Source of the DNA: Candidatus Saccharimonadota bacterium
GTDB taxonomy: Bacteria > Patescibacteriota > Gracilibacteria > UBA1369 > 2-02-FULL-48-14
Assembly (NCBI GenBank): GCA_965230905.1
Contig: OZ246396.1
Location: 1,274,354 to 1,306,353 of the forward strand
Reading direction: 5' to 3'
Length of the DNA stretch: 32,000 bases
Positions within the stretch are counted from its first letter, which is position 1. Each line of letters begins with the position of its first letter. This document shows, one piece after another, positions 11,397 to 32,000 of this stretch. Made by a program: the position numbers and the translations under genes. The notes beneath the pieces were generated by a model. It was not told where the DNA came from. It ran no database searches and worked only from the letters and a program-made list of their open reading frames with translations.

Positions 11397-11419
11397 CTAA
11401 CAGAAATTGATGCTGCAGT

Positions 11420-11977
11420 CTATTCTAACCAACTCTTTAAAAGCGTCACTTCATTTGTTTGACTCTCAATGATGGCATCTGCCAATTCAAGAAGTTCTGA
11501 CCTTTCAGTGATTTCTTTGATTTGTTCAGCCATCATGATCGCCCCTTCGTGATGTTCAATCATACCTGCAATATAGGTCTGATCCAATTCATCTGCCTCG
11601 AGATCAGAAAGGTCAGACATCATAGCCATGTAGTCGTCGCTTGCTTTAAAGCTGGTTCCAAACCACTCAGCACCCCATGCTTCCATCTTAGCGATTTCTG
11701 CGGTCTGTGCATCTATAATGTTTTGAGCAAGTGCTTTCAACTCTGCATTCGTAGATTTTTCAAGAGTGATCTTGGATGTATCGATCGCTTCTTGGTGATG
11801 TGGAATCATCATCGAAATAAAATCTTCATCACTTGCAAGCATCATCTCTCCTCCCGTGTCATGGTTCATCATTGAATTGTCATCGTCCATCATCGTGTCG
11901 TAGCGGTCTCCAGACTCACAGGCAGTGAGAAGGAGTGAAGTAATGAGGACTGAGAAGAAAAGTAAGAAGTTCTTCAT
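11420..11977 (-). CDS. DUF305-family lipoprotein (four-helix, metal-associated)
   Basis: Lipobox LLLTAC. Duplicated MMIPHHQEAI and GMIEHHEGAI motifs typical of DUF305. Last gene of the copA operon. Confidence 0.8.
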   Translation of the reverse strand: MKNFLLFFSVLITSLLLTACESGDRYDTMMDDDNSMMNHDTGGEMMLASDEDFISMMIPHHQEAIDTSKITLEKSTNAELKALAQNIIDAQTAEIAKMEAWGAEWFGTSFKASDDYMAMMSDLSDLEADELDQTYIAGMIEHHEGAIMMAEQIKEITERSELLELADAIIESQTNEVTLLKSWLE

Positions 11978-12009
11978 AAGGGATTGGATTAGAATGTAAG
12001 GTTATTTTA

Positions 12010-14274
12010 TTAAAGTTTCTTCGTCTTAAGTCGTAAAGAATTCCCAACCACCGATACACTTGAGAAGGCCATAGCCAAACCTGCGAACACGGGACTTAGT
12101 AGCCACTGGAATAAAGGGTAGAAGGCACCTGCCGCTAAAGGGATGCCGACGATGTTATAAAAGAAAGCCCAGAAGAGATTTTGTTTGATTCCACGCATCG
12201 TGATTTTTGAGAGCTTAATTGCCTTTACGAGTTTTGAAATGTCTCCGTGAAGGAGTGTGATCCCTGCAGACTCTATCGCCACATCCGTTCCTGTGGCCAT
12301 TGCAATGCCCACGTCCGCCTGGGCAAGTGCGGGGGCGTCGTTCACACCATCTCCAGCCATAGCCACTATTTTACCTTCGGCTTGGAGTTTCTTAATGATA
12401 TTCAGTTTATCCTCGGGCAAAACTTCAGCCACCACTTCATCAATGCCTGCTTCCTTAGAAATATATGCAGCTGTGTTTTTATTGTCGCCCGTGAGCATCA
12501 CCACTTGGAGGCCAAGCTTATGAAGGTGAGCGATGGCTTCTTTGGCTTCGGGTTTAATGGCATCGGCCACGAGGGCTATGGCGAGCACTTCTTTTTCTGT
12601 AGCGAGGATGATTGGAGTTTTGCCCTGTGCTGTTTCTTTTTCAATCAAGCTGGAATCAATCGTTAGTTTAAGGTCATGGATCAATTTTTCATTGCCCACG
12701 TAGTAAGTGGTCTCACCGATGCTTCCCTTAAGTCCTTTTCCTTTTATCCCTTCAAAATCGGCGACGGTATGGAGTGAAAGCTTTTTCTCGGTCGCCGCAT
12801 TTAAGATGGCATGAGCGATGGGGTGTTCGGATTTCTTTTCAAGTGAGGCTAGAATAGAAAGCAGTTCGTCGTCCGTTTTACCCGACAGTTTTATGATTGA
12901 AATCAGTTCTGGTTTTCCTTTAGTGATAGTCCCTGTTTTATCTACCACCACGGTAGTCACCTTGTGAAGTTTTTCAAGCGTGGCTGCATCTTTAATGAGG
13001 ATTCCTTCTTTTGCCCCTTTACCCACTCCAACAATAATCGCAGTTGGAGTCGCTAGACCAAGAGCACAGGGGCAGGCGATCACTAGAATGCTAACGAAGG
13101 AAACGAGTCCGTAAGAAAGTGCTTGTGAAAAGCCCAAATATAGAGTCCCAATACTTAGCCACACGGCAAGTGCTACGAAAGCAAAGACCAATACGACGGG
13201 GACGAAAACGCTGGAAATTTTATCGGCCAGGGCTTGGATGGGGGCTTTGCTGCCCTGAGCTTCTTCAACCATCTTTATGATGTGAGCGAGCATGGTTTCA
13301 GAACCCACTTTGCTTGCCTTAAAAGTAAAAGAACCGCTGGTGTTCATGGTTCCACCCACCACTTTATCGCCTACGGTTTTATGAACTGGCATTGGTTCGC
13401 CCGTGACCATGGATTCGTCGATGTAAGAAGAGCCTTCGGTCAGTTCACCATCCACGGGAATTTTACCGGCGGGTTTCACAACAATAAGGTCGCCTTTCAC
13501 GACCTGATCAATCGGAAGCTCCACTTCTTTGCCATCACGGATCACGAGAGCGGTTTTAGCTTGAAGATTCAGAAGTTTTTCAATGGCGTCCCCTGTTTTG
13601 AGTTTCGATCGTGATTCTAAATATTTACCTAGGGTGATGAAGGTGATCACCACGATGGTCACGTCGTAATAGCTGTGCTCTGTGTTTATATAAGCAGAGA
13701 GCGGTGCCTCAAAAGCGGTGACAACGAAGCTGTACAAATAGGCAGCCACGGTGCCAATTCCAATCAATGTGTCCATGTTTGCTTTGCCGTAGCGAAGAAA
13801 ACGATAGAAGCCGAGCAAGTAAGGTTTACCTACCACAAAGAGTACATAGGTAGCCATGAGTGGTAGGAGATGGTGGAAAAATTCCATCCAAATTTCAGGT
13901 ATAGGAGATAGCACACCGAATTGAATCAAAGCGTCCCAAGTCATTAGGAAAATACTGAAGGCAGCCAAAGGAAGAGCGGAGAGGACCAATGTTCTGAGTT
14001 CGGAAAGTTCCTTGAGTTTTTCTGTCTTGGTTTGACCCATGCCTGTGTGCTTGGAATGATCTTCTTCAAGCACGAGCGAGTAGCCCAGCGGTTCAATCTT
14101 TTTTGAAAGGTCGGCTGCGTGTACTTTGTGCTCATCAAATGCAACCTTTGCGGTTTCCGTTCCGTAGTTCACTTCTGCGGAAGTGACGCCCTCGGTTTTT
14201 TTAAAAGTTCTTTCAATGATTCCTGCGCAGGAAGCGCAGTGCATGCCTTTGATCTTATAGGTACTGGTGTTCAT
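12010..14274 (-). CDS. copA: copper(I)-translocating P1B-1-type ATPase
   Basis: N-terminal HMA (GMHCASCAG), TGEP, CPC ([11 protein letters not shown]), DKTGTIT and GDGVNDAP. The P1B-1 selectivity residues are also present: YN (FFYNIVG) and MxxSS (MAFSSVSV). Confidence 0.93.
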
Positions 14275-18250: not shown

Positions 18251-18388
18251 ATGTCGTCCAAAAAAATCTTCAGTGTTACTGGTTTAATTTTGTTCTTGCT
18301 AATTATTGCCGGATGCTCAGGACAAACAACTCAAAACGTAGATGAAAGTGAACCGCACGGACATAGTGATGAGGATGCCCATGAATAA
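18251..18388 (+). CDS. 45-aa lipoprotein with a His/acidic tail (not in the ORF track)
   Basis: ATG 18251 to TAA 18386-18388: MSSKKIFSVTGLILFLLIIAGCSGQTTQNVDESEPHGHSDEDAHE. Lipobox LIIAGC. It lies immediately upstream of the adaptor gene. Confidence 0.45.
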   Translation: MSSKKIFSVTGLILFLLIIAGCSGQTTQNVDESEPHGHSDEDAHE

Positions 18389-18413
18389 AAGATTATTTTT
18401 AACAGATATTATT

Positions 18414-20336
18414 ATGAAAAATCTGAAAGCAATTGTTGTAAAAAATCAGAAATTAATAGTTGGTCTTCTTATCAGCAGTGTTCTTCTTGTTACCCCATTG
18501 GCCTTTGCGAGTCCAGGCCACGATGATGCCACTGGTGAATCACAAACATCCGAATCTACTCCTTCATCGCAATTAGGCACTATCCAAGAAACAGAACTGG
18601 AAAAATTAGGGATTAGTAACGTTTCTTTTGCAGGTGAAGTGCTTTCAACAGATGATGTACGGATTCATCCGCTTGTTGAAGGTCAGCTCATTGAATTGAA
18701 TGTGAAAATTGGACAGTACGTAGAAAAAGGTCAGGTACTCGGTAGATTATCCGTTGCACCAAATCCAGATTTAATTGCCACTTTAGCCGAAAAGGCAAAA
18801 AATGCAGAACGGTCCAGGTTGCAAATGATTGTTATCGACAAAATTACCAATGAAAATAAACAACTGATTGATCAATTAAAAACTGTTCTTGATCGCGCAA
18901 AGGATTCGGCCATCCAAATTATTTATGCACAGGCTGAACAAAATCTTATTATTGCTCAAGGTGCCTCACAGCAATTAAGCTCGCAAAACGAAGTTAAAGA
19001 AGCCATCATCCTGTCAGCACAAGCCGATTATGAACAAGCACTGACAGCGGTTGATAGCGAATTAATGAACGTGCGCACAGCTGCCCAGAATGCGTATGTT
19101 GAATTTACGTCTATAGTATCTGATAACATTGGTCTAAGCACAAATAGCACAATAGACGATAATAATTTTAATGAAGCCTATGGGAAGTTTGATCAACAAA
19201 CACGAGGAAATTTTGCCTCAGCAGTTATGGCTTTTAAAAATGCATTTGAAGATGAGACCAAACTTCCAGAAAACGAAATAGATGTTTTTTTTGATGCGGC
19301 TGGTAAATTGCTTTTGAGTTCTCACCCATCAACCTATGTTTCCGCTGAAAAACTTGAAGAGCTACGTCAGATTCTTACTGAAAATGAAGTAGATTATTAT
19401 GAAGCTTTAAAGAATTATAAAGATGCCCTTGGTGAATTAGTACAGAAACAAGCTGATTACGAAACAGTAAAGGCCGAACAGGAAAGAGACATTGTGGGTT
19501 TAGAAGTAGACGCTAAAAATGCTCAAAGTTCTTATGAAATAACCGAAAGTTTAATAGAGGCGAAAAAAGTTGAAATTGAAACTGATTTTGAGAAGCAAAA
19601 ATTTGAATACGATAATCAGCTTCTTGAATTACTAAAAGAAAAATTACTTTATGAAGCTGAAGCTCAAGCGGCAGAAGTGGCTTACCAAGTATTCGCTTCA
19701 AAGATTGGCGGTCAGGAAATTGTCGCTCTGAAGTCAGGATATGTGTCGGGGGTATATATGAATCTTGGCGATCATGTAACGCCAGAAACTGCTGTTCTTG
19801 CTATCACCGGAGATATAAATGCAAAGAAGTTTGTTCGGTTTAAAATACCTGCCGATACTAAATTAGTGAGCGTTGGTGAAGTAGTTGATATCGAATCACT
19901 TAATTCTCAATTTGGAAAGACACAGGCAATAGTGACTGGTGTATCTCTTTCTCTGGATTCAAATGGGTTTTTCTTAGCTGATGCCGATTTAAATATAGAT
20001 GCCAATTTACCAGTGCACGCGAATGTACGGATAGTTCCAAACACTCAAAATAATCTTCTTGTTGTACCGCTTTCAGCTCTAGTGGCTGATGAAAATGGCA
20101 AATATAGTATATGGCTTGTCGATAAAGATACTGTCATACATAAAAAAGAGTTAACAATTGGAAGAACTTTTGGTGATCAAGTCGAAATTCTTGATGGAGT
20201 TGCATTGAATGATCAATTCATTGTCAAACCTGCAGCAGATTTGGTTGATGGATCAAAGTGGGAAGGAACTGTACCAACAGAAGAAGCTGAAGAACCTGCC
20301 CCAGAGGGTGACGGACATGGTCATTCTCACGATTAA
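18414..20336 (+). CDS. RND efflux periplasmic adaptor (MFP/HlyD family), unusually long
   Basis: I prefer ATG 18414 (MKNLKAIVVKNQKLIVGLLISSVLLVTPLAFA signal) over 18342. Lipoyl-like half-motifs are present (RIHPLVEGQLIELNVKIGQYVEKGQVLGRL and ALKSGYVSGVYMNLGDHVTPETAVLAI). A very long helical insert separates them. C-terminal beta domains follow, with the tail EGDGHGHSHD. Confidence 0.8.
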   Translation: MKNLKAIVVKNQKLIVGLLISSVLLVTPLAFASPGHDDATGESQTSESTPSSQLGTIQETELEKLGISNVSFAGEVLSTDDVRIHPLVEGQLIELNVKIGQYVEKGQVLGRLSVAPNPDLIATLAEKAKNAERSRLQMIVIDKITNENKQLIDQLKTVLDRAKDSAIQIIYAQAEQNLIIAQGASQQLSSQNEVKEAIILSAQADYEQALTAVDSELMNVRTAAQNAYVEFTSIVSDNIGLSTNSTIDDNNFNEAYGKFDQQTRGNFASAVMAFKNAFEDETKLPENEIDVFFDAAGKLLLSSHPSTYVSAEKLEELRQILTENEVDYYEALKNYKDALGELVQKQADYETVKAEQERDIVGLEVDAKNAQSSYEITESLIEAKKVEIETDFEKQKFEYDNQLLELLKEKLLYEAEAQAAEVAYQVFASKIGGQEIVALKSGYVSGVYMNLGDHVTPETAVLAITGDINAKKFVRFKIPADTKLVSVGEVVDIESLNSQFGKTQAIVTGVSLSLDSNGFFLADADLNIDANLPVHANVRIVPNTQNNLLVVPLSALVADENGKYSIWLVDKDTVIHKKELTIGRTFGDQVEILDGVALNDQFIVKPAADLVDGSKWEGTVPTEEAEEPAPEGDGHGHSHD

Positions 20337-20356
20337 TAATTGCTCACTAATTTTTT

Positions 20357-23300
20357 ATGCTCAACCAAATTATTCTCTGGGCGATCAATCATAAGTGGAC
20401 AACTATTATTGTCTCAGCCCTGATAGCAGTACTCGGAATCTTCAGTTTGCTCACTATGAAGGTTGATGTATTACCCAATATAAACAAACCAACGGTCGCT
20501 ATTTTTACTGAAGGAGAAGGTCTTGCGCCGGAAGAAATTGAACGTCTTATTTTAACTCCAATTGAATCAGCAGTTGCTGGTGCCCCAGGAGTTGAGCGTA
20601 TCCGAGGAACCGCTTCGTTTGGCCTTGCCATCGTTCAAGTCGAATTTAATTGGGGGTCAGATATTTATCGTAACCGCCAAATCATTCAAGAAAGAATTGC
20701 TCAGTTAAATCTCCCTGAAGGTGCAAAACCAACGCTTGGACCTGTATCTTCAGTCATGGGAGAGATCATGTGGGTAGGTATATCTTCAAAGGAAGCTAAT
20801 CTTGATGGTATGGACCTCAGAACTCTTGCTGACTGGACGATACGTCCTGCTTTATTACGCTTACCTGGAGTTTCGGATGTCATTGTTATGGGTGGTGATG
20901 TGCGTGAGTGGCAAATTAATATTAATGCTGAGCGACTTGCTCAATATGAACTTACCGTAGAAGATATTGTAGAAAATGTTGAGGGTGCGCTACAAAATCG
21001 AGGTGGTGGCATTCTTGTAGAGAATGAACTTGAATACCCGATACGAATTTTGGTAGCTCCAAATGAAATTAATGAACTTCAATCCCTTGGCGTGGGTTCT
21101 TTTAATGATATGCCTATAGTTTTAGGCGATGTAGCGAGCCTCATAGAGGGGCCAAGTCCCGTAAGAGGCGCAGCTTCTATTGATGGAAAAGAGGGAGTTG
21201 TCATGAGGATTGTTAAACAGCCGGAAGCAGAGACCCTTGAGGTTACCAAGCTTGTTGATGAAACACTGGAGTCGCTTGAAAAAAGCCTTCCAGAGGGAAT
21301 AGAACTTCACAATGATCTTTTTAGACAAGAATGGTTTATCACTGCAAGCCTTGAAAATGTTATTGAGGCACTACGAGATGGAATAATCCTCGTGATTATT
21401 ATTTTGATTCTTTTTTTGGCAAATACTAGAACAACTCTTATTACGCTGACAGCGATCCCCATGAGTATTCTGGTCACCGCGATCGTATTCAAGCTCTTAG
21501 GTTTTTCGGTCAACGTTATGACTCTGGGGGGTATTGCGGTAGCGATTGGCGAACTCGTTGATGATGCTATTGTTGATGTAGAAAATGTCTTTACGAGACT
21601 TCGTGAATGGAGAAAAAATGGCAAACAAGAACCTCTGGAAAAAGTTGTTTTTAAAGCATCGAGCGAAGTTCGAAATTCCATAGTCTATGCGACACTGCTC
21701 GTAGCAATTGTTTTCTTGCCCATCTTTTTTATTCCAGGAGTAGAAGGAAAGCTTTTAGCTCCTCTCGGACTTGCGTATCTTACTTCACTTATTGCCTCAT
21801 TATTTGTTTCTCTTACACTTACACCGGCACTTTGCGTTCTCCTTTTAGGATCAAGCAAAAAAGAGGAAACTCATGAAGAAACAAAATTCGTTCGTTGGAT
21901 TAAGAAAAATATTACTCCTCTTATAGGATGGAGTATTAATCATTCACGTACACTTATTACAGGAATTGTAGGTGGTCTTATGATTGCTATCGTGCTTTTC
22001 ATGTATGCTGGAAAAGAAGGTGTACCACCTTTTAATGAAGGAGCAGTTACTGTTGGGGTCGTTATGCCCGTAGGGACTGACCTTCAGACATCCAATGATT
22101 TTGCTTCTCAAGTTGAAACAAAGATACGTGAAATCCCTGGGATTGTACGCGTAAGTCATTTGACCGGCCGTGCGGGGGCAGATGCACATGATAGTGGCGC
22201 AAACACGAGTGAAATCCAAGTAACTTTTGATCACGGACTTGAAGAAGAGCGTACACGTCTATTTGGAGAAATTCAAAAGGTACTTGATGAATTTCAAGGT
22301 GCAGACTTTAGCCTTGGGCAACCAATTACTCATAAAATGGAAGAGCTCTTATCTGGCGTTCGTGCTCCGATCGTCATTAAAGTATTTGGTGATGATCTTG
22401 ATGCTATGAGAGAAGTAGCGGAACAAGTTCGGGATGAACTAAAACTTCAACCTGGAGTTACGAATGCCCAAATTCCAAAAGAAGTACTCATCCCTGAATA
22501 TCGGATATTTCCAAACCGTGAAAGACTCGGCTCACTTGGTCTGTCTTCAGGAGAAATCGCAGATGAACTTGAAGCCGGCCTCTTGGGTGTATCGGTGGGT
22601 CAGGTACAGCTTGGATCAGCTCAAGTACCCGTTGTAGTGCGCTATGACATTTTCAGTAAAGGGAATATGGCCGCAATCAGAAATTTATCCTTTGCAGGAG
22701 ATCAAGTTACTACATTGAACGACACTTCTGATATTCAAATTCAAGGAGGCTTAAACCGTCTTAGTCATGAGGGTGGAAAGCGAGTCATAATCGTAAGCGC
22801 TAATTATCAGGGAAAAGATATTGTTGGTGCGGTAGAAGAGGTAAAACAGGATTTTGAATCCATAGAACTTCCACAAGGGATAACTCTTTCTTTTGAAGGA
22901 ACATATAAAAGCCAAAAGGAAAATTCCCTGCTTCTTCTAATGCTATTTGGTGTCGGACTTTGCTTTATTTTTGGAATTTTGTATCACGCCTTTCGGTCAA
23001 GCGCTATTGTCATCCTTATAATGCTTAACATCCCAACCGCACTTATAGGAGGAATAATAGGGGTATGGGTAACTGGTGGTGTAATCAGTTTGGCCCATCT
23101 TATTGGTTTCATTTCTTTAGCTGGAATCGTTTCTCGAAATGGAATCATGCTAATTAGTCACACTATTAACTTAGTGAAAAAAGAAGGCTTACCATTCACA
23201 CCTGAAACCATGCTGCGTTCAACTCTTGATCGAGTGGTGCCCGTACTTATGACATCTTTGACTGCACTCCTTGCTCTTATTCCATTCTTATTGTCATCAG

Positions 23301-23461
23301 AGGCCCCAGGGAAAGAAATGCTTTATCCGTTAGCTGTTGTTATTTTTAGCGGTTTGACTGTATCAACGATTATTTCATTATTCTTAACCCCTTCTCTTTT
23401 CTATCGCTTTGGTAAAAAGACAATGCTTTCACATACCGCTTCAATCGAAAGTTCAAATTAA
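20357..23461 (+). CDS. heavy-metal-efflux RND permease (CusA/CzcA family)
   Basis: 1034 aa. The N-terminus (WAINHKWTTIIVSALIAVLGIFSLLTMKVDVLPNINKPTVAIFTEGEGLAPEEIERLILTPIE) is typical of CusA/CzcA. The TM4 motif is GGIAVAIGELVDDAIVDVEN. The topology is 12 TM helices with two large loops. Confidence 0.9.
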   Translation: MLNQIILWAINHKWTTIIVSALIAVLGIFSLLTMKVDVLPNINKPTVAIFTEGEGLAPEEIERLILTPIESAVAGAPGVERIRGTASFGLAIVQVEFNWGSDIYRNRQIIQERIAQLNLPEGAKPTLGPVSSVMGEIMWVGISSKEANLDGMDLRTLADWTIRPALLRLPGVSDVIVMGGDVREWQININAERLAQYELTVEDIVENVEGALQNRGGGILVENELEYPIRILVAPNEINELQSLGVGSFNDMPIVLGDVASLIEGPSPVRGAASIDGKEGVVMRIVKQPEAETLEVTKLVDETLESLEKSLPEGIELHNDLFRQEWFITASLENVIEALRDGIILVIIILILFLANTRTTLITLTAIPMSILVTAIVFKLLGFSVNVMTLGGIAVAIGELVDDAIVDVENVFTRLREWRKNGKQEPLEKVVFKASSEVRNSIVYATLLVAIVFLPIFFIPGVEGKLLAPLGLAYLTSLIASLFVSLTLTPALCVLLLGSSKKEETHEETKFVRWIKKNITPLIGWSINHSRTLITGIVGGLMIAIVLFMYAGKEGVPPFNEGAVTVGVVMPVGTDLQTSNDFASQVETKIREIPGIVRVSHLTGRAGADAHDSGANTSEIQVTFDHGLEEERTRLFGEIQKVLDEFQGADFSLGQPITHKMEELLSGVRAPIVIKVFGDDLDAMREVAEQVRDELKLQPGVTNAQIPKEVLIPEYRIFPNRERLGSLGLSSGEIADELEAGLLGVSVGQVQLGSAQVPVVVRYDIFSKGNMAAIRNLSFAGDQVTTLNDTSDIQIQGGLNRLSHEGGKRVIIVSANYQGKDIVGAVEEVKQDFESIELPQGITLSFEGTYKSQKENSLLLLMLFGVGLCFIFGILYHAFRSSAIVILIMLNIPTALIGGIIGVWVTGGVISLAHLIGFISLAGIVSRNGIMLISHTINLVKKEGLPFTPETMLRSTLDRVVPVLMTSLTALLALIPFLLSSEAPGKEMLYPLAVVIFSGLTVSTIISLFLTPSLFYRFGKKTMLSHTASIESSN

Positions 23462-23596: not shown

Positions 23597-25111
23597 TTAG
23601 AACAGTTGTTTAGCAAGGATGATGATCTTTGCTACTTCAGCACGGTTAGGGACTTCATCAGGACGGAAAGTACCTGTTGCTTCGTCACCTGATATCACCC
23701 CCATGCTTAGCGCATAATTGATTGCATTTACATTTGCATGATCTAGCGCAACATCACTGAAGGGTGCTTCACTTGCCTCTGTTATATCTAGATCAAGCAC
23801 ATCAATGATCAATTGAATGAGTTCACCTCGCGTAACTTCTGACGTGTATTCAGCGTCGTCTACAAGAGCGTTCTCGACTCGACTTAGAAGGTCTGCGCTC
23901 AGTAGATCAGAGAAATCATTTTGGAGCGTGAGTGCGTAGCCACGAGCCCAGGAATCACCCTCTGCAATTTCCTCGGGGTCTTTATCTAAGACACACTGCA
24001 ATACAAACTTCATGCTTTCTCCAAACAGCACTTCATTTGAAGGGCGGAATTCGCCTAATTCATTTCCTGCTTCGTCCTTGAATCCTGAGATACAAGCCTC
24101 TGAATCCATTTGATCAACAAAGTTGAAGAACCATTCTTCATCATCTGTATCTTTAAACGGAATCACATCATCTTCGAATTTATTTTTAGTAGATTCATTT
24201 TTAATTTCTTCAATCTTGTCTTCCAGGTCTGAGACCTTCTCTTCAGAATCATCATCTGATTCAATAATTCCTTCGATGTCTGAGATGACTTCATCTTCAT
24301 CTACTCCACTTACATTGAACGCAGCAAGAGCAACGAGTAGGTCACTTAACTTAGATTCAACGGTCTCTGCAAGGGAAGTAAGAGCTTCGTCAAGTTCAGT
24401 GTTTGCCGCTTGGTCCTCTTCAGACAATAATTCTTCAACAAAATCTGCTATTTCTTCTTCAAAGTCTTCGAAACATTCATCAAACTCTTCAGCGTCACTT
24501 TCATCTGAGAGTACTGCTTCGGCAATACATTCTCCAAAGTCTTCACCAAGTTCAGATTCTTCACTGTTTGAGTGGATATCTTTACCTTTGGCGTACATCG
24601 CTTCATGTTTAGCTTCCTTGGCAAGATCTTCTGCTTCTTCGTAGTTTCCTGCATCAAATTTAGTTTGTGCATCAGCAAGAAGCACTTTTGCACCTTCAAG
24701 TCGTACAAGGGCATCAGACACATCCTTACCTTCAGCTTCTTTTTCAACAATAGTTTCTTCTGCTTCAGCAATTTCTTCCTCAGCGTCTTCAATCTTATCA
24801 GCTGCATTTTCCATATCAGAATCCTCCTCTTCATCTTCATCGGAATCGTCGCCATCTTCGCTGTCTGAGTCAGTATCTTCATCCTCATCTACATCTGAGT
24901 CACCATCACTGTCTTCATCTTCATCTTCATCTTCATCTTCATCTTCATCCTCATCCTCATCGTTACCTGAATTATCAGAGTCTTCTCCTTCATCCGATAA
25001 TTCAACAGCGTCTGCATCAAACACGGACACTTCGATATCAGCGATGGACGCTAAGGCTATTGATGCAGGTACAAGAAGTACCAGCAGAGCTACAAATAGG
25101 TTTTTATACAT
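23597..25111 (-). CDS. secreted hyper-acidic protein with C-terminal SLH domains
   Basis: Signal peptide MYKNLFVALLVLLVPASIALA. A long D/E tract follows (DEDEDEDEDEDEDEDEDSDGDSDVDEDEDTDSDSEDGDDSDEDEEEDSD). The centre is acidic and helical. C-terminal SLH repeats are present (PFSDVALDHANVNAINYALSMGVISGDEATGTFRPDEVPNRAEVAKIIILA). Confidence 0.8.
   Translation of the reverse strand: MYKNLFVALLVLLVPASIALASIADIEVSVFDADAVELSDEGEDSDNSGNDEDEDEDEDEDEDEDEDSDGDSDVDEDEDTDSDSEDGDDSDEDEEEDSDMENAADKIEDAEEEIAEAEETIVEKEAEGKDVSDALVRLEGAKVLLADAQTKFDAGNYEEAEDLAKEAKHEAMYAKGKDIHSNSEESELGEDFGECIAEAVLSDESDAEEFDECFEDFEEEIADFVEELLSEEDQAANTELDEALTSLAETVESKLSDLLVALAAFNVSGVDEDEVISDIEGIIESDDDSEEKVSDLEDKIEEIKNESTKNKFEDDVIPFKDTDDEEWFFNFVDQMDSEACISGFKDEAGNELGEFRPSNEVLFGESMKFVLQCVLDKDPEEIAEGDSWARGYALTLQNDFSDLLSADLLSRVENALVDDAEYTSEVTRGELIQLIIDVLDLDITEASEAPFSDVALDHANVNAINYALSMGVISGDEATGTFRPDEVPNRAEVAKIIILAKQLF
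24912..24961 (-). repeat. in-frame hexanucleotide microsatellite encoding (DE)n
   Basis: (TCTTCA)x6 then (TCCTCA)x2 on the + strand, which is GAAGAT/GAGGAT on the coding strand. Confidence 0.9.
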
Positions 25112-25371: not shown

Positions 25372-26034
25372 TTACAGCTCTTCCCCTGTAATAGTCTTAT
25401 AGACGTGCTGAGCGCCTCGTCCTGCTCGCACATTTTCAGAGTGCATGGCCTGGATTTGTTGGTACATGGCAGTTGCTTCGTCACCAAAGACTAAACGACC
25501 TGCAGTGTCGGAAGGGAGTTGTTCAGCAACGAATGCTACTCGCAGTGGACTTTCCCCTTGAGTGAAGTGCATAGCCATCCGAGGAGGTTGAACGTCGTCA
25601 GGATTTAAAGTAGTGCTAAAAATGTCACCATCGGAACAAAAAGCTCTGAGTGCGGCCACCGAGATCTCTCTTGCCGCACGCATATTTTCTGACACAGTAC
25701 TTCTTAGTGTTGCATCGTCCATTACGGAGATCCCCAGAAGCCTGGCGAACATCATCCCTGCGATTCTATTTCGTGGGTGTTCAGGAGTATATAGAGGTGT
25801 TAATGGCTTTGGCGTAGCGTATACGAAAGGACGATCTTGGTGATTCGTTGGGGTGTCATCAATCTGGCTCAACACTTCTCTTTCCACAAAAGCTTGTAAC
25901 CAAGTGTATGCATCCCGACCTAAAGGGAGATCAGCGGCCCCTTGACTCATTCCTTCTGCGAAGTGATCTTGCTCTAATTCTGAGAGTTCAGCCTGCTTAG
26001 CGAGGTCTTTGAAATTGATTGGGGCTTTATCCAT
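25372..26034 (-). CDS. hypothetical protein (220 aa)
   Basis: Long ORF, GC-richer than its neighbours. No motif recognised. Confidence 0.55.
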   Translation of the reverse strand: MDKAPINFKDLAKQAELSELEQDHFAEGMSQGAADLPLGRDAYTWLQAFVEREVLSQIDDTPTNHQDRPFVYATPKPLTPLYTPEHPRNRIAGMMFARLLGISVMDDATLRSTVSENMRAAREISVAALRAFCSDGDIFSTTLNPDDVQPPRMAMHFTQGESPLRVAFVAEQLPSDTAGRLVFGDEATAMYQQIQAMHSENVRAGRGAQHVYKTITGEEL

Positions 26035-26070: not shown

Positions 26071-26134
26071 TTGTAACGGCAAGAAAAAGCTCAGTTGTCT
26101 CTCAAAGCGGTAAACGGTAGAATTGGAGCGGCCC
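26071..26134 (+). repeat. intergenic repeat family 1, degenerate copy C
   Basis: TTGTAACGGCAAGAAA...TTGTCTCTCA...AAACGGTAGAATTGGAGCGGCCC parallels the 3' half of copy A (TTGTTTCTCACGGCAAGAAACGGTAGGATTAGGCAGTCC), with an internal insertion. It ends 27 nt before ATG 26161. Confidence 0.35.
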
Positions 26135-26160
26135 GCAGCCATAATATCAATTCATTCATC

Positions 26161-26628
26161 ATGGCACATCCAAACAGTGTAAAAGTTTTCTTAGAACGAA
26201 ATGAACGTCTTTGTAATCCTCGCGAGTACCCCAATCTTATGTCACCAGAGTTGCAGCAAGGCATTCACGAGAGACTTCTCGCAGAATCACGTTTTTCTCA
26301 AAGGGCTATAGGGGATGACCGCCCTAGAGAATTTCCTTCAAGTTTTAGCTCTGGAGAGGAAGTGCTCATTTTTATTACGGAGCAAACAGGTTTAGCTGCT
26401 GCAGATGTTTTACAAAAAGGACCATGGCTTCAATCTTTTGCTGGAAATTTGAGACTGGATTCTATCTTCTACGGTTCACAGATTGGAAATGTGGCTTCCA
26501 TAGTTTTTCATGGAAATGAACATTTTGCGCTACATCTCATATATAAGCCGGGGGCGGCGTGCCAAGTATTAACTCCTGCTGAATATCAGGTTTGGGAGGA
26601 CGAACGATGTTCCCTATCCCAAGGGTAA
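26161..26628 (+). CDS. hypothetical protein (155 aa from ATG 26161; the track ORF begins at TTG 26095)
   Basis: ORF with no recognisable motif. Its last codons run into the 108-nt repeat. Confidence 0.5.
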   Translation: MAHPNSVKVFLERNERLCNPREYPNLMSPELQQGIHERLLAESRFSQRAIGDDRPREFPSSFSSGEEVLIFITEQTGLAAADVLQKGPWLQSFAGNLRLDSIFYGSQIGNVASIVFHGNEHFALHLIYKPGAACQVLTPAEYQVWEDERCSLSQG

Positions 26629-26725
26629 GATCCACGTGGCCGCTCTACTTCCTTAAAATCTTTCCCATTGCCTTCCCTTTGGCTAATTCATCGATCAATT
26701 TATCCATGTAGCGGATTTTTTGCAT
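26618..26725 (+). repeat. 108-nt direct repeat, copy D1
   Basis: Identical to 31893-32000 at 106 of 108 positions (C>T at two sites). It ends at the AT of the MFS start codon. It contains CCACGTGG and AATTCATCGATCAATT. Confidence 0.9.
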
Positions 26726-27929
26726 GAGGTGGAGTTTGGTTTGGGATCATGATTTAATATTTCTATGCCAGGTTCATTACAAAATTCTCACACTGAATAT
26801 TAATTTTCTTTATAGTTCCGTTTTTTTTCAGCACTTTGCTTATGGATTGATCATTCCAACTTTGCTTGTTTGGCAACACCAAGCGGGACTCAGTTATGCT
26901 GAAATCGGAACCATCCAAGCGGTAGGATTTTTATTTATGCTTATCGCTGAGATTCCAAGCTCTTATTTTGCAGATCGAGTCAGTAAAAGAATCACTCTTC
27001 TATTGGGCTTTGCATTTTCCATACTGAGCTTCATCTTTTTAATTCAAGCAGATAATTTTGTGTTTTTTCTTATTATGCAGATTTTATTCAGTGTTGGTGG
27101 TGCCTTTTTTTCCGGCACACAAGAAAGTATGCTTCACGATTTAATGAGTGTAGAAATAAAAATGACCAAATCCTTGGGGAAGCTAAGTATTTTTGACGAA
27201 ACGGGTACTGTTTTAGGCATGCTGGGATCGAGTTTTTTTATTAGTAATTACTCTATTAAAGCTAGTTTTATTGCTGGTTTAGCGGCACTTATAATTGGCC
27301 TCTTAAGTATTGCGCTAATAAGCACGCCAAACACTCTTTCTCGTAAAGAGGATACCTTTTCAAGTTCCACAAAAGTTCATATTAAATCAGTAAGCACTTT
27401 GATTATTATTCTGTTTTTCTCCTTCATGGCCCTTCGAGGAGAAATCTTGTTTCAATCGACTTTCGAAGAACTCCATATAGATCTAGCTTTGCTTGGGCTG
27501 ATCTATATTTTCGGGAAAATATTTTCGATTGTAGGCTCGATGTATGCACATAAAATCGAGGATTGCCTTGGTTTTAAAAAGTCTATGACCCTAGTGGCCT
27601 GTCTACAAATTGCTAGTTTCAGCATCTTATTGTTTTCGGAACTAATCTTAACAATAACCGCTATTTCTATCTATTTCTTCTCTGAGAATATTTTTCGGAA
27701 TATTCGTGATTCATGGATATTATACCGTGCTCCGCTTAATCGACGTGCAAGCGCCATTTCCAGTGTTAGTTTTTCGACAGCTGTTTTTGCCTTAGCATTT
27801 ACCCCTATAATTGGGCTTGGGATAGATCAGGCCGTATATTGGGGTATTGCCATACTTGTATTCGCCAAATTAATAGGTTTTGTTCTTGTTTTTAACGGTC
27901 GGTTGAATAAACCTAACTTACAGTTCTAA
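26724..27929 (+). CDS. MFS transporter
   Basis: About 400 aa and polytopic. A motif-A-like [14 protein letters not shown] follows TM2. The start codon is uncertain. The stop overlaps the convergent 397-aa gene by 12 nt. Confidence 0.8.
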
Positions 27930-29111
27930 CCATGATGTCCTTAGCTGCCCATCTTTGGTAAGCATGGCATCTCTTGGATTTTCTATCCCACTCAGCAACA
28001 GTTGTTTTGGACCCAGAACATAGACACCGCCCAATCCTGTTAGGGAATAATACTTATATACTTCAGCTCTAGCGGTCTCTAAATCTAATTGAACTATTTT
28101 TGCAACCTCTAATGCAGTCTCTTCAAAGTTTTTTCCTTGTAAGGTGAAATGATCGCCCAATAATCTTGCCACTCTTAATCGTGCCTCAAAGATCCTATCC
28201 GCCAGCATCCACTCTTCAAGCTTTCTGGCCTCGAGGCCCCTTTCTTTGTCCAACAAATCAAACATTTTTCTCACTTGTTCTGACCCAGAGCCCAATTTTT
28301 TCATAAACTGATGCTCAGATAAAACAGCAACAGACTCAAGAAATGCTCTTTCTCTCATTGAATCTATATAAGTGCCCACAGATATGTTGGCATGCTGCGA
28401 AAGATGCGCAATGTGCGCAGCATTGTGAGGAATATCGAAAGAGAATTGTGTCGCTAAATCATACTTAGCTGGCGTGACGTAATTAATTACACCATCCCTT
28501 GTCGTCCAAAATAAATGGTGATTTTTTGGATTTTCAATAATTGAAACGTTTACGTTTTCCACAGCTGGCATCTCAAAAATGTTTTCTATAACAAATTGTA
28601 TAAGTCGTTTGGTCTCTTCTAGGGAAACCTTGAGCTCAAGTCCGGGTAAGAGTTCAGGATGTGTGAATTGCCCCCCTTTGTCTTGAAGTTCAGCTACTCC
28701 AGCCTCTAAAGCATTTTCATACATGCCTCTCATGCCAAACATTTCCTCGATTTGGGTGCGTGTGATCAAAAGATTCTGATCAAAATTCCCCTCCTCTAGT
28801 TCTTCGAGAATTTTATACAAAACTCCCCTAAGCTCGCTGACTAAAGTTTCACCTAAAATTGTGATCAATTGGGCGTCAGTTGTAACCCTCAAAATCCTAG
28901 CAATGTCTTGTTTTACTTTTAAAAGTAGTACTGGATCAGCATGTGGGACGAGTGGTTTATTTAAAACCAATACATCTAATAATGTTCTTACAAAATTTGA
29001 GATAGCATCACGATCAACATTGGAAAGGCCCTCTACATAGCACCTTCCAAGCATGCTAGAAAGCATAGGAAGGTCATATGTTTTCGCAGGATGATCAGTG
29101 GGTATCTCCAT
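27918..29111 (-). CDS. hypothetical protein (397 aa), last gene of the four-gene operon
   Basis: The start codon directly abuts the stop of the upstream GTP cyclohydrolase-like gene (CAT 29109-29111 and TTA 29112-29114). It is helical and contains IPHNAAHIAHL...ERAFLESVAVLSEHQF and C-terminal YKYYSLTGLGGVYVLGPKQLL. No family is confidently recognised. Confidence 0.7.
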   Translation of the reverse strand: MEIPTDHPAKTYDLPMLSSMLGRCYVEGLSNVDRDAISNFVRTLLDVLVLNKPLVPHADPVLLLKVKQDIARILRVTTDAQLITILGETLVSELRGVLYKILEELEEGNFDQNLLITRTQIEEMFGMRGMYENALEAGVAELQDKGGQFTHPELLPGLELKVSLEETKRLIQFVIENIFEMPAVENVNVSIIENPKNHHLFWTTRDGVINYVTPAKYDLATQFSFDIPHNAAHIAHLSQHANISVGTYIDSMRERAFLESVAVLSEHQFMKKLGSGSEQVRKMFDLLDKERGLEARKLEEWMLADRIFEARLRVARLLGDHFTLQGKNFEETALEVAKIVQLDLETARAEVYKYYSLTGLGGVYVLGPKQLLLSGIENPRDAMLTKDGQLRTSWLEL

Positions 29112-30101
29112 TTAGTCTTTTAGACTCTCGCCGATATTACCAAGATTTGTATCTATAACCGTACGTACATCATGAATGTGGATACTATCGTTAAGTATAG
29201 ATTCAATTCTCAATCTTGTATCATCTGGGGCCTTGGTACCAAACTTTTCATAGAGACCTGCAGCAACGTCACGAACCACATCTTCAGTAAACTGTGGCCT
29301 ACTCAATGCTCTAACGACTAAATCGTGTTCATCAGGCCTTTTGAGAAGTTCATTTACCAAATGGGTTGTTGTATCTAAGACGGTTAAAAGTTCCCGAGTT
29401 GAGATCTCTGGATGCCGTTTATCCATCATCACCGTGATGGTACCTCTTTGAGTATGAGTCCCCGTTAGAACAGTATTTAATATTGCATTGATTTGAGTTG
29501 TATCAAAACCAAGTTCTTGTAAACGGGGCACCACCGAAAGTTTTGTATAGGTTCTTGTACACGGGCAGGCAGTGATATTATAGGCCTGTACTCCAGTTCG
29601 TTGCCTCACAATAGATTCTTCTGCCACCGCCTCACTGAGTAATATAACTTTATCATGAGTTTGTTTTCCTGTTTTTCTTGTATTTCTATGGTGTAAATGT
29701 GTAGCTGAAATTTTCACTATGCCTAGGTTTGAGCTCTGCTTTTCTCTTAATCTTTCGGCAAGAGCCACTGCAAATGTGTCTAAATCAGGGTAGTTCCCTT
29801 CAGCTAATTCAAATAATGCCTCTTCGCATCGAGACATATGTATTCCTCTATGACCCTTTAAATCTACAGATAAGGTGACGTCACATAAAATTGGCGACTT
29901 CTTAGTTGGATCTGTGATGTCATCTATTTCGATATATACTTGCTGGCTTGTGATACCAGCTTCATCGATTTCTATTGGGTTTAGGGGCTGTGACTCCGGG
30001 ACATCCGTAATTTTATCTAGAAATTTTCTGAACTCTTCTGGATCTCTAAATTCAGTTCCGTTAAGTTGATAGTTTACTGGATCATAAATGCGTTCAGGCA
30101 T
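29112..30101 (-). CDS. GTP cyclohydrolase I type 2 / MptA-like (FolE2, DUF198 family) protein
   Basis: HRGIHMSRCEE, ITACPCTRT and GTHTQRGTI match the FolE2/MptA motifs as I recall them (G-x-HMSR, CPC, H-x-QR-S/G). It carries an N-terminal extension of about 60-70 aa relative to short FolE2 proteins. Confidence 0.65.
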   Translation of the reverse strand: MPERIYDPVNYQLNGTEFRDPEEFRKFLDKITDVPESQPLNPIEIDEAGITSQQVYIEIDDITDPTKKSPILCDVTLSVDLKGHRGIHMSRCEEALFELAEGNYPDLDTFAVALAERLREKQSSNLGIVKISATHLHHRNTRKTGKQTHDKVILLSEAVAEESIVRQRTGVQAYNITACPCTRTYTKLSVVPRLQELGFDTTQINAILNTVLTGTHTQRGTITVMMDKRHPEISTRELLTVLDTTTHLVNELLKRPDEHDLVVRALSRPQFTEDVVRDVAAGLYEKFGTKAPDDTRLRIESILNDSIHIHDVRTVIDTNLGNIGESLKD

Positions 30102-30116
30102 ATTTAAATTAGGTTA

Positions 30117-30905
30117 TTAACTGATTAAAGATAGTACCTTTAACCTCATCTGATGAGGTAATAGTGGTAACAATTTTAAAAACCATTTGTCTCTTCCAAA
30201 AGTCAAATCTGTTGGATTCCTTGGTAGATTCGTCAACAAAAATTCTGCAAAGGCTTCTGGGGAGTGAATTTTCCCACGCTGCCTCATTGTTTCTGCAAAA
30301 TCTGTCATTCCTGCGATTTCAAAGAATTGAGTGTCCGTAACACCTGGCCTAGCAACTGTCACCTCTATTCCTTGCGAGGCTACTTCTTGTCTCACAGATT
30401 GAGCAAAGCCCTCAAGCCCAAATTTACTTGCGGAATATGCTGATAAATTAGGGAAGCCCATTTTCCCGGCTAGAGAAGTAATAAAAATCAAGTGACCTTT
30501 TCTGAACTCAATCATGACTTTCAAAATTTCTTGACTTAGCCTCATTGTCCCAAGGAGGTTGGTTTTTATTATACCCTCCATTTTATCTGTAGAAATATCT
30601 GCAGTTGGTGCACTCAACCCAGTTGCAGCATTATTGATAAGCATATCGATTCGTCCCGTGGTGCCTAAAGCCATTTCTTTTATATCTCTACTTGAGTTTG
30701 GATCGGAAATATCTGCAACCAAAGCGTGTATCGTTCCTGAAACTTGACCAGATACTTCTTCCAATTCCATTAAGAGATTAGCTCTTCTGGCTACAGCAAT
30801 TACATGAGCGCCATTTTCTGCAAGTTGGAGCGAAACTGCTCTGCCTATCCCAGAAGATGCACCCGTAACGATAGCCGTTTTTCCTTCGTAATATTTTTCA
30901 GACAT
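30117..30905 (-). CDS. classical short-chain dehydrogenase/reductase (SDR)
   Basis: TGASSGIGRA, NNAATG and the S...YSASK catalytic motif. Confidence 0.9.
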   Translation of the reverse strand: MSEKYYEGKTAIVTGASSGIGRAVSLQLAENGAHVIAVARRANLLMELEEVSGQVSGTIHALVADISDPNSSRDIKEMALGTTGRIDMLINNAATGLSAPTADISTDKMEGIIKTNLLGTMRLSQEILKVMIEFRKGHLIFITSLAGKMGFPNLSAYSASKFGLEGFAQSVRQEVASQGIEVTVARPGVTDTQFFEIAGMTDFAETMRQRGKIHSPEAFAEFLLTNLPRNPTDLTFGRDKWFLKLLPLLPHQMRLKVLSLIS

Positions 30906-30914
30906 AACTTGTTA

Positions 30915-31829
30915 TTAATGAATGTTAAATCTAATCCTCAACAAATGTCTCTCCAGATCTGAAAAAGAAGTTCTGCCATGTAGGATCTCGTGATTATTCA
31001 GGAATAAAACTTGTCCTCTTCTTAAATTAAATCTAATCTGAAGAGATGGATCGTTTAACACCTCATCTAGGTGATCCATGGCTTGAGCAATAGACTGATC
31101 CTTTTCTTTTGGATTCATTGTGTAAGCTCTTTCAATGGTCTCTCTGCGATATCTAATGTATGGAGATTCTCCTATGATGGGAGCTGAAAAAATCTCCAGA
31201 GAATCCTCGGTAGCTGTTGCCGTAAAGGCCGTCGGCACTCGAAAGGGGACTTTCTCTCTACTTAGTATTTCCACTGAATCTCTTAATCCCCTGGCAATTA
31301 ATTCGTGAATCGCCATCCTAGCATCGACCAAAATACTTTCACCTTCACCATTTTTATCTGGATTGAGACACCAAAGACTGACTCCACTCTCAGGCTCAGG
31401 AAAATATTGAGTATCGGTATGAAGACCAGCGTGCCCTTGATGTTCAGAGTAGGTTAAATTATCGCCAGTTTGAGTAGGGTCTGCTTTGATTGGCCACACT
31501 ATATTTTTTTTGACTCTATCTGTGCACGTGGTAACACCTATGAGATTGCTGATCGCAACCATATAGGCCTGCATTAATTCTGGAGAATTCTCGAATTCTT
31601 CAAAGGCGAGACCCTCAGCTAAGCAAAATCTAGTACCCTCATTTAGCCTTTGTATGACTGCTTGAGCAAAGGATTGAAATTTGATTGAGCTTCTAACCTT
31701 TTCATCAATATCACCAATTGGTAAATGGCTAATAGCTTCTAACTCTTCAGGAGAGAGACTAATACTGAGATTGATCTTTTCTGGTGAACTTGCTATCTGG
31801 TTTCTATTCCAAACCTCAAATTTTTCCAT
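30915..31829 (-). CDS. TauD/TfdA-family Fe(II)/2-oxoglutarate dioxygenase (gamma-butyrobetaine-hydroxylase-like)
   Basis: HxD facial-triad motif in GLHTDTQYFPEPESGVSLWCL. The distal His/Arg lie in LNNHEILHGRTSF. First gene of the operon. Confidence 0.8.
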   Translation of the reverse strand: MEKFEVWNRNQIASSPEKINLSISLSPEELEAISHLPIGDIDEKVRSSIKFQSFAQAVIQRLNEGTRFCLAEGLAFEEFENSPELMQAYMVAISNLIGVTTCTDRVKKNIVWPIKADPTQTGDNLTYSEHQGHAGLHTDTQYFPEPESGVSLWCLNPDKNGEGESILVDARMAIHELIARGLRDSVEILSREKVPFRVPTAFTATATEDSLEIFSAPIIGESPYIRYRRETIERAYTMNPKEKDQSIAQAMDHLDEVLNDPSLQIRFNLRRGQVLFLNNHEILHGRTSFSDLERHLLRIRFNIH

Positions 31830-31892
31830 GAGAGTCTTTAAGAGTAGTTCACGATTTTATATTTTTTAAACTTTAAATCAAGGTAAAATTGA

Positions 31893-32000
31893 CCCAAGGG
31901 TAAGATCCACGTGGTCGCTCTACTTCCTTAAAATCTTTTCCATTGCCTTCCCTTTGGCTAATTCATCGATCAATTTATCCATGTAGCGGATTTTTTGCAT
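31893..32000 (+). repeat. 108-nt direct repeat, copy D2 (truncated by the window end)
   Basis: See D1. The offset between copies is exactly 5275 bp. The window ends at the position matching the AT of the MFS ATG, so the repeat and a paralogous gene start may continue. Confidence 0.9.

Follow-up and report, generated by a model that had tools for sequence, protein, structure and literature searches.

We report a five-gene module, restricted to bacteria of the Candidate Phyla Radiation (CPR) and previously undescribed, that centers on MptA/FolE2 cyclohydrolases of a third clade and on a DUF885-like protein family that is new. It is found in a stretch of 32,000 nucleotides (contig OZ246396.1, positions 1,274,354 to 1,306,353, assembly GCA_965230905.1; hereafter the window) from a groundwater metagenome-assembled genome of the Patescibacteria (CPR), the proteins being identical to database entries of a 'Patescibacteria group bacterium'. 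The module encodes a TauD/TfdA-family Fe(II)/2-oxoglutarate (2OG) dioxygenase, a classical short-chain dehydrogenase/reductase (SDR), an MptA/FolE2-family GTP cyclohydrolase, a 397-aa protein with a predicted DUF885/M32-like fold, and a transporter of the major facilitator superfamily (MFS). These five genes are one conserved functional module of the CPR, and in our judgment the chances are about even that the module is a pathway for a GTP-derived, pterin-type small molecule with a dedicated transporter; the product could also be a closely related guanine-derived small molecule. Pathways of this kind, initiated by a GTP cyclohydrolase, are already known, and it is the combination of genes that is new. 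A first-pass annotation of the window had proposed an operon for a GTP-derived small molecule. Its gene families, its synteny and its missing pathway partners are borne out by the analyses below, and a GTP substrate and a pterin-like product are what we, likewise, infer.

CPR bacteria (Patescibacteria) account for a large share of bacterial diversity, and most of them are uncultured episymbionts that have next to no capacity for biosynthesis. The first-pass annotation did not recognize the gene combination as any described pathway, and our searches of the literature on FolE2/MptA gene clusters, DUF885, COG1469, and CPR bacteria with a GTP cyclohydrolase yielded no description of the module. 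A survey of the CPR reports that most cofactor pathways are missing, with folA, glyA and folD being common, and makes no mention of a cyclohydrolase (PMC11974145).

Conservation and organization of the module

The same gene set is present in approximately 18 independent loci, representing Saccharimonadia, Paceibacteria and Gracilibacteria (which use genetic code 25), as well as other groups. Loci were counted by tblastn with the five window proteins, combined with all-against-all clustering of open reading frames (ORFs) over 20 non-redundant loci, of which 19 carry the cyclohydrolase, 18 the SDR, 18 the 397-aa family, 16 the MFS transporter and 15 the TauD-like dioxygenase. Pattern scans yielded 6 loci from GTDB species genomes and 9 from JGI metagenomes. 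The locus search was built on one alignment (A1), a second alignment of 35 sequences (A2) being too diverse for this use. The co-occurrence is strict: the genes for the SDR, the cyclohydrolase (GCH) and the 397-aa protein (UNK) are contiguous and in the same order in 18 of 18 loci, and every readable contig that carries a homologue of the 397-aa protein has the same neighbor genes. The TauD and MFS genes shift position around this core, resulting in four arrangements: <MFS TauD-SDR-GCH-UNK>; TauD-SDR-GCH-UNK> <MFS, as in the window; UNK> <MFS TauD-SDR-GCH>; and SDR-GCH-UNK-TauD. Because the genes stay together despite rearrangement across deep CPR lineages, we regard their retention as strong evidence for a single function. 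Chance adjacency was considered as an explanation, and is ruled out by the synteny data.

These results settle two points that were left hanging by the first-pass annotation. It had allowed that the four minus-strand genes might be syntenic nowhere else, which the approximately 18 loci sharing the gene set exclude. It had also treated the MFS gene as a neighbor whose product may transport the pathway product. The adjacency holds, and the transporter gene proves to be more than a neighbor, adjoining the module in 16 of 18 loci as a fixed fifth member. Clustering of ORFs across the 20 loci disclosed no sixth recurrent family, apart from antisense shadows of the module genes and generic ABC ATPases.

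Named records that carry the module are all from the CPR (Saccharimonadales, Saccharibacteria, Paceibacterota, Gracilibacteria, 'Peribacteria' and the Patescibacteria group), and the module has so far been seen in CPR bacteria only; Levyibacteriota and Peregrinibacteria are also present among the cyclohydrolase matches. TauD relatives from outside the CPR were examined as candidate module members and rejected, their contexts in Pyrinomonadaceae (P0201) and Pacearchaeota (P0204) being devoid of the module. Two of the loci (L011:5704-6897 and L013:3466-4686) contain many in-frame TGA codons aligned with Gly of relatives, which points to genetic code 25, and judging from these codons the module is maintained in code-25 lineages too. 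The record for L013 is 'Candidatus Peribacteria', a group not known for code 25, and this bin may be misassigned.

In the window, the ORFs of the module occupy 26724..31829, with four on the minus strand and one converging from the plus strand. On the minus strand these are the dioxygenase gene (30915..31829; 304 aa, PF02668), the SDR gene (30117..30905; 262 aa, PF00106), the cyclohydrolase gene (29112..30101; 329 aa, PF02649), and the gene for the 397-aa, apparently cytoplasmic protein (27918..29111), which is assigned a DUF885/M32-like gluzincin fold on the basis of predicted structure and profile signal; the MFS gene lies on the plus strand (26724..27929; 401 aa as called, PF07690). The junctions read TAA-9 nt-ATG between dioxygenase and SDR, TAA-15 nt-ATG between SDR and cyclohydrolase, and TAAATG (0 nt) between the cyclohydrolase and the 397-aa gene, the 3' end of which overlaps the convergent MFS ORF by 12 nt (27918-27929). 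Coordinates and junction sequences are in agreement with the first-pass annotation, which had listed four minus-strand genes, gaps of 9, 15 and 0 nt and the 12-nt overlap with the MFS gene, and the motifs that it gave for the dioxygenase, the SDR and the cyclohydrolase were all recovered on translation. A promoter-like sequence, TTGATT-16 nt-TAAAAT (31854..31881, minus strand), which was found by consensus scan and read against the sequence, is located 24 nt ahead of the first start codon, within the 90 nt that separate the operon from the upstream DUF2200 gene; promoter-like sites are no more numerous in the region than expected from shuffling, and TTGATT/TAAAAT is a consensus match only.

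The cyclohydrolase and its coupled partner

The 329-aa protein matches PF02649 (GCHY-1) at residues 32-312 with 136.3 bits, far over the cut-off of 25, and its membership of the FolE2/MptA family, on which the earlier proposal hinged, stands. The best curated model is NCBIfam MptA (TIGR00294), both for the window protein (166 bits against a cut-off of 220) and for 32 of 32 sampled members of the clade. The FolE2 model (NF010200) gives 98.4 bits against a cut-off of 215, and both scores are thus below the level of an equivalog. More than 430 relatives were detected at E < 1e-20, the best 120 of which show 41-73 % identity and are mostly about 321-335 aa long. From these comparisons, the cyclohydrolase appears to be nearer to archaeal MptA than to FolE2 and to belong to a CPR-specific clade, the third among MptA/FolE2 cyclohydrolases.

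Translation of the gene gives the motifs GIHMSR (residues 86-91), CPC (179-181; positions 29559-29567), HTQRG (216-220; positions 29442-29456), KRPDEH (254-259), FTED (271-274) and HIH (308-310), and across 32 clade members GxHMSR, CPC, HxQ(R)G, KRxDE, ExxxR/ED and HxH are invariant. When aligned to the FolE2 of N. gonorrhoeae (3d2o), His216, Glu258 and Glu273 fall on FolE2 His159, Glu201 and Glu216, and CPC falls on the CPCS motif; these positions, including the Cys of CPC, we take to be the metal ligands and the catalytic acid of the FolE2/MptA literature. Because the family motifs are all intact and invariant, the enzyme looks catalytically competent, with GTP as its presumed default substrate. 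The most distant cyclohydrolase that was sampled (41 % identity), on contig L014, stands alone among three genes for TrmB-family regulators, and the clade therefore reaches outside the module. This protein (P0123) was considered as a module member and rejected, as its context consists of TrmB regulators, with no module genes. The same contig, which probably comes from a DPANN-type archaeon, has an ATP-dependent DNA ligase and a radical S-adenosylmethionine (SAM)-NUDIX fusion near the cyclohydrolase gene.

No Pfam or NCBIfam match was obtained for the 397-aa protein of the window. A word-indexed search of 5.8 billion proteins identified 8 homologues, and an exhaustive profile search of 1.84 billion proteins identified 59 representatives of the family, 42 of them at < 1e-30. 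Structure prediction followed by a Foldseek search, as the first-pass annotation had recommended for this protein, was productive: AlphaFold2 returned a confident model from the 8-sequence alignment (pLDDT 91.4, pTM 0.90), which in the PDB matched with a probability of ~1 only the DUF885 'putative lipoproteins' 3o0y and 3u24 and the M32 carboxypeptidases 5wvu, 1k9x, 3hoa and 5e3x, with TM-scores of only 0.4-0.48. Pfam DUF885 is weakly matched by 11 of 35 family members (best E 7e-5), the window protein itself giving no match, and the profile of the 397-aa family matches 3o0y at E 3e-4, via the C-terminal pattern R-x-x-R-L-x-x-D…E-x-x-(K/R)-Y…G…Y-x-x-G. Plain sequence searches of PDB and Pfam gave no result, and the link to DUF885/M32 is reached by profile and fold methods only. 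The protein is thus modeled as a remote DUF885/M32-like metalloprotein fold. It had been called unknown in the first-pass annotation, a description that still fits as far as Pfam matches are concerned, and that no longer fits now that the predicted structure and the profiles lead to a fold.

In the model, secondary structure elements follow the order of a gluzincin core, with a sheet (187-214), a helix (219-237) that bears H229, H233 and H236, and a second helix (252-275) that bears E259. The pattern P-H229-N-x-x-H233-x-x-H236 is encoded at 28404-28430 and E259 at 28335-28337. Invariant across 35 sequences are W202, P228, H229, H233, R255, E259, E266, R306, R313, R316, E350, Y354, L360, Y364 and G367. 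At residue 230, next after the first His, 34 of the 35 sequences have Asn and one has Thr. The residue is never Glu, the catalytic residue at this position in HExxH peptidases, and in this respect the family differs from the gluzincins of the MA clan. Two segments, 'E-x-VAV-x-SE' and 'R-x-x-R-L-x-x-D ... E-x-x-K-Y ... G-L-G-x-x-Y', align with 3o0y of DUF885 (PF05960). The solved DUF885 proteins, however, are lipoproteins of ~600 aa, whereas the present protein is cytoplasmic, has ~400 aa and carries no signal peptide; no function is assigned to DUF885 in the literature that we searched. Taking the residues and the model together, we would expect a metal-binding enzyme that has departed from peptidase chemistry, and the four invariant Arg (R255, R306, R313, R316) would suit a phosphorylated or carboxylated ligand. 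Because its start codon abuts or overlaps the stop codon of the cyclohydrolase gene in most loci, the 397-aa protein probably takes the cyclohydrolase product directly.

The dioxygenase, the reductase and the transporter

The TauD-like protein matches PF02668 with 94 bits (cut-off 27), and carries the facial triad H137-T-D139 (31413-31421) and H284-G-R (H284 at 30978-30980). Invariant in its subfamily, which is small (23 matches), are H137, D139, H284, R226, R228, R286, R294, R298 and R300, thus including six Arg, with R294/R298 providing the C-terminal Arg that is required for 2OG. The AlphaFold2 model (pLDDT 90.5) is a jelly-roll fold matching TtnM, BBOX and clavaminate synthase (CAS), and in the PDB Foldseek places TtnM (7n7v) first (E 7e-17), followed by BBOX1, TmpA, CAS, AsnO and VioC. 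By structure and sequence its relatives are CAS-like small-molecule hydroxylases (TtnM, BBOX1, TmpA, CAS, AsnO, KDO1, VioC, CsiD). The module protein has its fold and its HxD...H triad in common with these Fe/2OG hydroxylases (Foldseek E 1e-17 to 1e-12 for TtnM, BBOX1, TmpA, CAS, AsnO, VioC and CsiD), but identities are only 15-20 %, the substrate is not transferable, and the six invariant Arg set it apart as a subfamily of its own.

Two loci have no TauD gene, neither on the whole 11.4-kb contig in the case of L002 nor within about 6 kb on each side of the module in the case of L016. In both, a gene for a protein of 441-442 aa follows the 397-aa gene (L002:3663-4991 and L016:9211-10536), the two copies being 59 % identical. 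These proteins contain CSIGCQYC (CxxxCxxC) and have sub-threshold matches to the Radical_SAM family and to the SPL-related Rv2578c/PA0069 families, and the sequence looks like that of a divergent SPL/Rv2578c-like radical SAM enzyme that replaces TauD. Because the radical SAM gene stands where TauD is absent, the two enzymes may, as suggested by these two loci, be the O2-independent and O2-dependent forms of one C-H activation step. A gene for a class I methyltransferase comes next after the radical SAM gene in L016. Methyltransferases were tried as module members and not retained, since they follow the module in L001 and L016 without doing so consistently.

The SDR scores 175 bits against PF00106 (cut-off 26.6), with TGASSGIG at residues 14-21 and Y157-SAS-K161, and its gene is immediately upstream of the cyclohydrolase gene in 18 of 18 loci. 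Its nearest solved relatives are clavaldehyde dehydrogenase (2jah, 3e-32) and FabG enzymes, and its sequence is that of a generic classical SDR. Searches with PF02668, PF00106 and PF02649 were hence all above cut-off, and the first-pass assignments to the TauD, SDR and FolE2/MptA-type families can be retained. The transporter matches PF07690 (MFS_1) with 89.7 bits (cut-off 33.4). Its best NCBIfam matches are weak and of drug-efflux types (the 2_A_01_02 multidrug model, HP1165, TetA(P), QacA/B), all far under their cut-offs. In two loci an ABC-F type ATPase is encoded close by, in L017 (L017:3048-4562; two ABC domains and an ABC_tran_Xtn linker) between the cyclohydrolase and the 397-aa gene, and in L022 (L022:12982-14649) just after the MFS gene; these neighbors could be a sign of self-protection against a product that targets translation, or could be due to chance.

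Pterin-related genes, regulation and genomic surroundings

The first-pass annotation had remarked that the usual partners of a pterin-forming cyclohydrolase (folB/K/P, PTPS, queD/E/C, moaA) are missing nearby, and this was upheld over a larger region. Partners from folate, tetrahydrobiopterin (BH4), queuosine and molybdenum cofactor synthesis (folB/K/P, PTPS/QueD, queE/C, moaA/C) are absent from the window and the 10 kb upstream (~42 kb in total of the 1.3-Mb contig), and ORF clustering found none of the canonical pterin-pathway partners to be recurrent in about 20 related loci. An Rfam search detected no riboswitch upstream of the operon in six loci. In L018, a stretch ~1.4 kb downstream of the module (L018:12622-14147) encodes a pterin-4a-carbinolamine dehydratase (PF01329, E 2e-24), then a flavin mononucleotide (FMN) riboswitch (RF00050, 86.6 bits) and, last, a multi-pass membrane protein that is EamA-type by eye. 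The dehydratase was considered as a clue to pterin chemistry and set aside, as it lies near the module in L018 only and is not recurrent.

The rest of the window encodes a 6-phosphogluconate dehydrogenase, MutY, an M23 peptidase, copper-handling proteins, a resistance-nodulation-division (RND) efflux pump and S-layer homology (SLH) domain proteins; the 10 kb past the window end hold the DUF2200 gene, hypothetical genes, methyltransferase genes and ZnuA, none of them pterin-related. GC content declines from ~52 % at the left end of the window (1-3000) to 37-41 % at the right (27000-32000), and the module lies in the low-GC part. SLH-domain proteins are encoded at 4070-5776 (plus strand) and 23597-25111 (minus strand), and the second has a long, very acidic N-terminal half, rich in Asp, Glu and Ser, that causes a strong local dip in GC skew at 24-25 kb. 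The copper/heavy-metal cluster (9716-14274) encodes an HMA-DsbD_2 fusion whose C-terminus resembles a cupredoxin at a sub-threshold score (9716-11101), a DUF305 protein (11420-11977) and a P-type ATPase with an HMA domain (12010-14274), and between this cluster and the M23 peptidase gene there are a PemK/MazF-type toxin gene (8621-9013, minus strand) and a tRNA gene (9202-9273, plus strand). A membrane-fusion-like protein (sub-threshold Biotin_lipoyl_2) and then a full-length AcrB-type RND pump (772 bits) are encoded at 18342-23461 (plus strand); such a pump is unexpected in a CPR bacterium, the group being usually thought to lack an outer membrane. The space from the SLH protein gene to the MFS gene holds two divergent ORFs, 25372-26034 (minus strand, 220 aa) and 26095-26628 (plus strand, 177 aa), which match nothing in Pfam or NCBIfam and are not recurrent in related loci.

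Discussion

The module resembles the start of two known routes. Archaeal MptA is an Fe2+-dependent GTP cyclohydrolase (GTP cyclohydrolase IV) and, together with the subsequent enzyme MptB, performs the first steps of pterin synthesis for methanopterin and folate. The module cyclohydrolase shares with MptA the curated model that fits best, in the window as in 32 of 32 clade members, a similar length (about 300-330 aa) and the conserved GxHMSR, CPC, HxQR, RPDE and HxH, and by analogy with MptB a metal-dependent enzyme encoded next to the cyclohydrolase could process the phosphorylated product. However, the host is bacterial, the score remains at 166 against the cut-off of 220, the partner has a DUF885-like fold where MptB is an HD-domain protein, MptD and MptE (aldolase and pyrophosphokinase) are not found near the module, and the module adds an SDR, an MFS transporter and either TauD or a radical SAM enzyme. 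Bacterial FolE2 (GCYH-IB; 3d2o, 5k95, 8g6c) likewise belongs to PF02649, and its His159, Glu201, Glu216 and CPC Cys positions are kept; the differences are a score of 98 bits against 215, an E value of 1e-8 versus the structure sequences, and no adjoining folate or queuosine genes. The second route is that of BH4, in which a cyclohydrolase is followed by a metal enzyme for which the triphosphate side chain is the target (the Zn enzyme 6-pyruvoyltetrahydropterin synthase, PTPS) and then by an SDR (sepiapterin reductase), a succession to which that of the module may be analogous. Here too there are differences, as the module has no T-fold protein of the PTPS/QueD type, its metal protein having an MA-clan-like fold instead, its SDR has no particular resemblance to sepiapterin reductase, and it includes an extra oxygenase or radical SAM step and a dedicated transporter. 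Given the unmet equivalog cut-offs, the absence of PTPS, MptB, MptD and MptE, the different fold of the metal enzyme, and the added oxygenase/radical SAM enzyme and transporter, the module is a member of neither the MptA-MptB branch nor the cyclohydrolase-PTPS-sepiapterin reductase pathway.

For the reading that we prefer, a GTP-derived pterin-type pathway, we propose the following substrate, order of steps, chemistry and transport. First, the cyclohydrolase would open the imidazole ring of GTP to give a 7,8-dihydroneopterin phosphate, either the triphosphate or, as with MptA, the 2',3'-cyclic phosphate plus pyrophosphate. The translationally coupled 397-aa metalloprotein, with His229, His233 and Glu259 as predicted ligands and four invariant Arg suited to phosphate, would then take this labile product and process its phosphorylated side chain, by PTPS-like non-hydrolytic elimination or MptB-like phosphoester cleavage; a PTPS-like elimination would fit, because the catalytic (general-base) Glu is missing. 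Third, the SDR might reduce or oxidize a carbonyl or hydroxyl of the side chain, by analogy with sepiapterin reductase. Fourth, the Fe/2OG dioxygenase would hydroxylate a C-H bond, the radical SAM enzyme being its putative O2-independent equivalent in some lineages. A candidate version of this step is the oxidative removal of a phosphate ester, for which LipL, a TauD-family dioxygenase acting on uridine monophosphate, is a precedent. Finally, the MFS transporter would export the product or import a precursor.

Several observations weigh against this pathway. Scores below both the MptA and the FolE2 equivalog cut-offs mean that a different guanine-type substrate is possible for the cyclohydrolase, and the 397-aa protein does not have the catalytic Glu of MA-clan hydrolases. 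The role proposed for it draws only on its position, on conserved residues and on analogy. Both the SDR and the TauD-like enzyme are generic, and none of their nearest solved relatives acts on pterins, their substrates being amino acids, betaines, phosphonates and, in one case, a polyketide. The dehydratase of pterin-4a-carbinolamine is near the module in one locus only, and no riboswitch or regulator was found that ties the operon to a known metabolite.

The same chemistry could serve another purpose, namely to make a bioactive compound for secretion, be it an antibiotic, an antimetabolite or a signal directed at the host, with the MFS protein as an efflux and self-protection pump. The transporter is fixed to the module (16 of 18 loci) and its weak matches are to drug-efflux families, and an ABC-F type ATPase, a family that includes ribosome-protection resistance proteins, stands inside the module in L017 and beside the MFS gene in L022. 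These MFS matches, however, are far below cut-offs, ABC-F proteins also serve as housekeeping factors in translation and adjoin the module in 2 of about 18 loci, and no resistance-type copy of a target and no regulator was seen. An antibiotic cluster would also not be expected to be so widespread or so conserved by vertical descent, and we consider a secreted compound of this kind unlikely.

Also improbable, in our estimate, is a catabolic, salvage or detoxification route, in which the transporter imports a host purine, pterin or other compound, the dioxygenase and SDR oxidize it, and the cyclohydrolase-like and metallohydrolase-like proteins open or trim the ring, the substrate not being GTP. 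The invariant FolE2/MptA catalytic and metal-binding motifs fit the canonical GTP reaction instead, although the cyclohydrolase does score under both equivalog cut-offs, and we know of no characterized PF02649 member that is catabolic. The TauD family is rich in catabolic hydroxylases (TauD, TfdA, CsiD/GlaH, TmpA), and the MA-clan-like fold of the 397-aa protein points to hydrolase ancestry, but the hydrolase-type catalytic Glu is absent from it. A reliance of CPR bacteria on salvage, in the absence of most biosynthesis, would favor such a route (PMC11974145), whereas kinases, phosphorylases and phosphoribosyltransferases typical of salvage are not recurrent nearby.

Ordinary folate or tetrahydropterin housekeeping, with the cyclohydrolase as a FolE2 for folate or queuosine, the SDR as a FolM/PTR1-like reductase and the other genes as passengers, has a slim chance of being correct. 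FolE2 is a known replacement of FolE, and SDR-type pteridine reductases (FolM, PTR1) are established. FolM and PTR1, however, carry TGxxxRxG, where the SDR of the module has the ordinary TGxxxGxG, the cyclohydrolase does not qualify as a FolE2 equivalog (98 bits against 215), folB/K/P/C are absent from ~42 kb around the locus and not recurrent in ~20 loci, and a co-occurrence of five genes in four arrangements across CPR classes is not expected of passengers. The common occurrence of folA, glyA and folD in the CPR is in keeping with such housekeeping (PMC11974145).

A riboflavin- or deazaflavin-type route, in which the cyclohydrolase stops at the formamidopyrimidine (as does GTP cyclohydrolase III), the 397-aa protein is an ArfB-like deformylase and the SDR makes ribityl from ribosyl, is in our view highly improbable: a metallopeptidase-like fold could suit a formamide hydrolase and two RibD_C genes lie ~4 kb from the module in L004, but RibD_C is not recurrent, RibH/RibB/RibE and CofG/H are not recurrent nearby, L018 appears to take up riboflavin via a transporter controlled by the FMN riboswitch, the general-base Glu of a deformylase is missing, and the scheme leaves the dioxygenase without a role.

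Returning to the GTP-derived pterin-type pathway, we offer a more specific version tentatively, the chances being somewhat against it. In bacteria that otherwise have hardly any cofactor or nucleotide biosynthesis, the module would be a self-contained, CPR-specific route of four enzymes from GTP to a new pterin-like or guanine-derived metabolite that crosses the membrane. The DUF885-like HNxxH family would take over the side-chain chemistry that is the usual task of PTPS or MptB, the Fe/2OG and SPL-like radical SAM enzymes would be interchangeable as aerobic and anaerobic means to one C-H activation, and the product would play a part between symbiont and host, be it as a cofactor that both share, as a signal or as an antibiotic. 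The four enzymes are small and soluble-looking, which makes the hypothesis open to heterologous expression. If true, it would provide the first functional context for the DUF885-like family and for the third FolE2/MptA clade, and would add a further case in which an O2-dependent enzyme has a radical SAM counterpart. Because CPR bacteria, with their scant biosynthesis, have kept a conserved module that would spend GTP and that carries its own transporter, this module likely matters for the life of CPR bacteria with their hosts.

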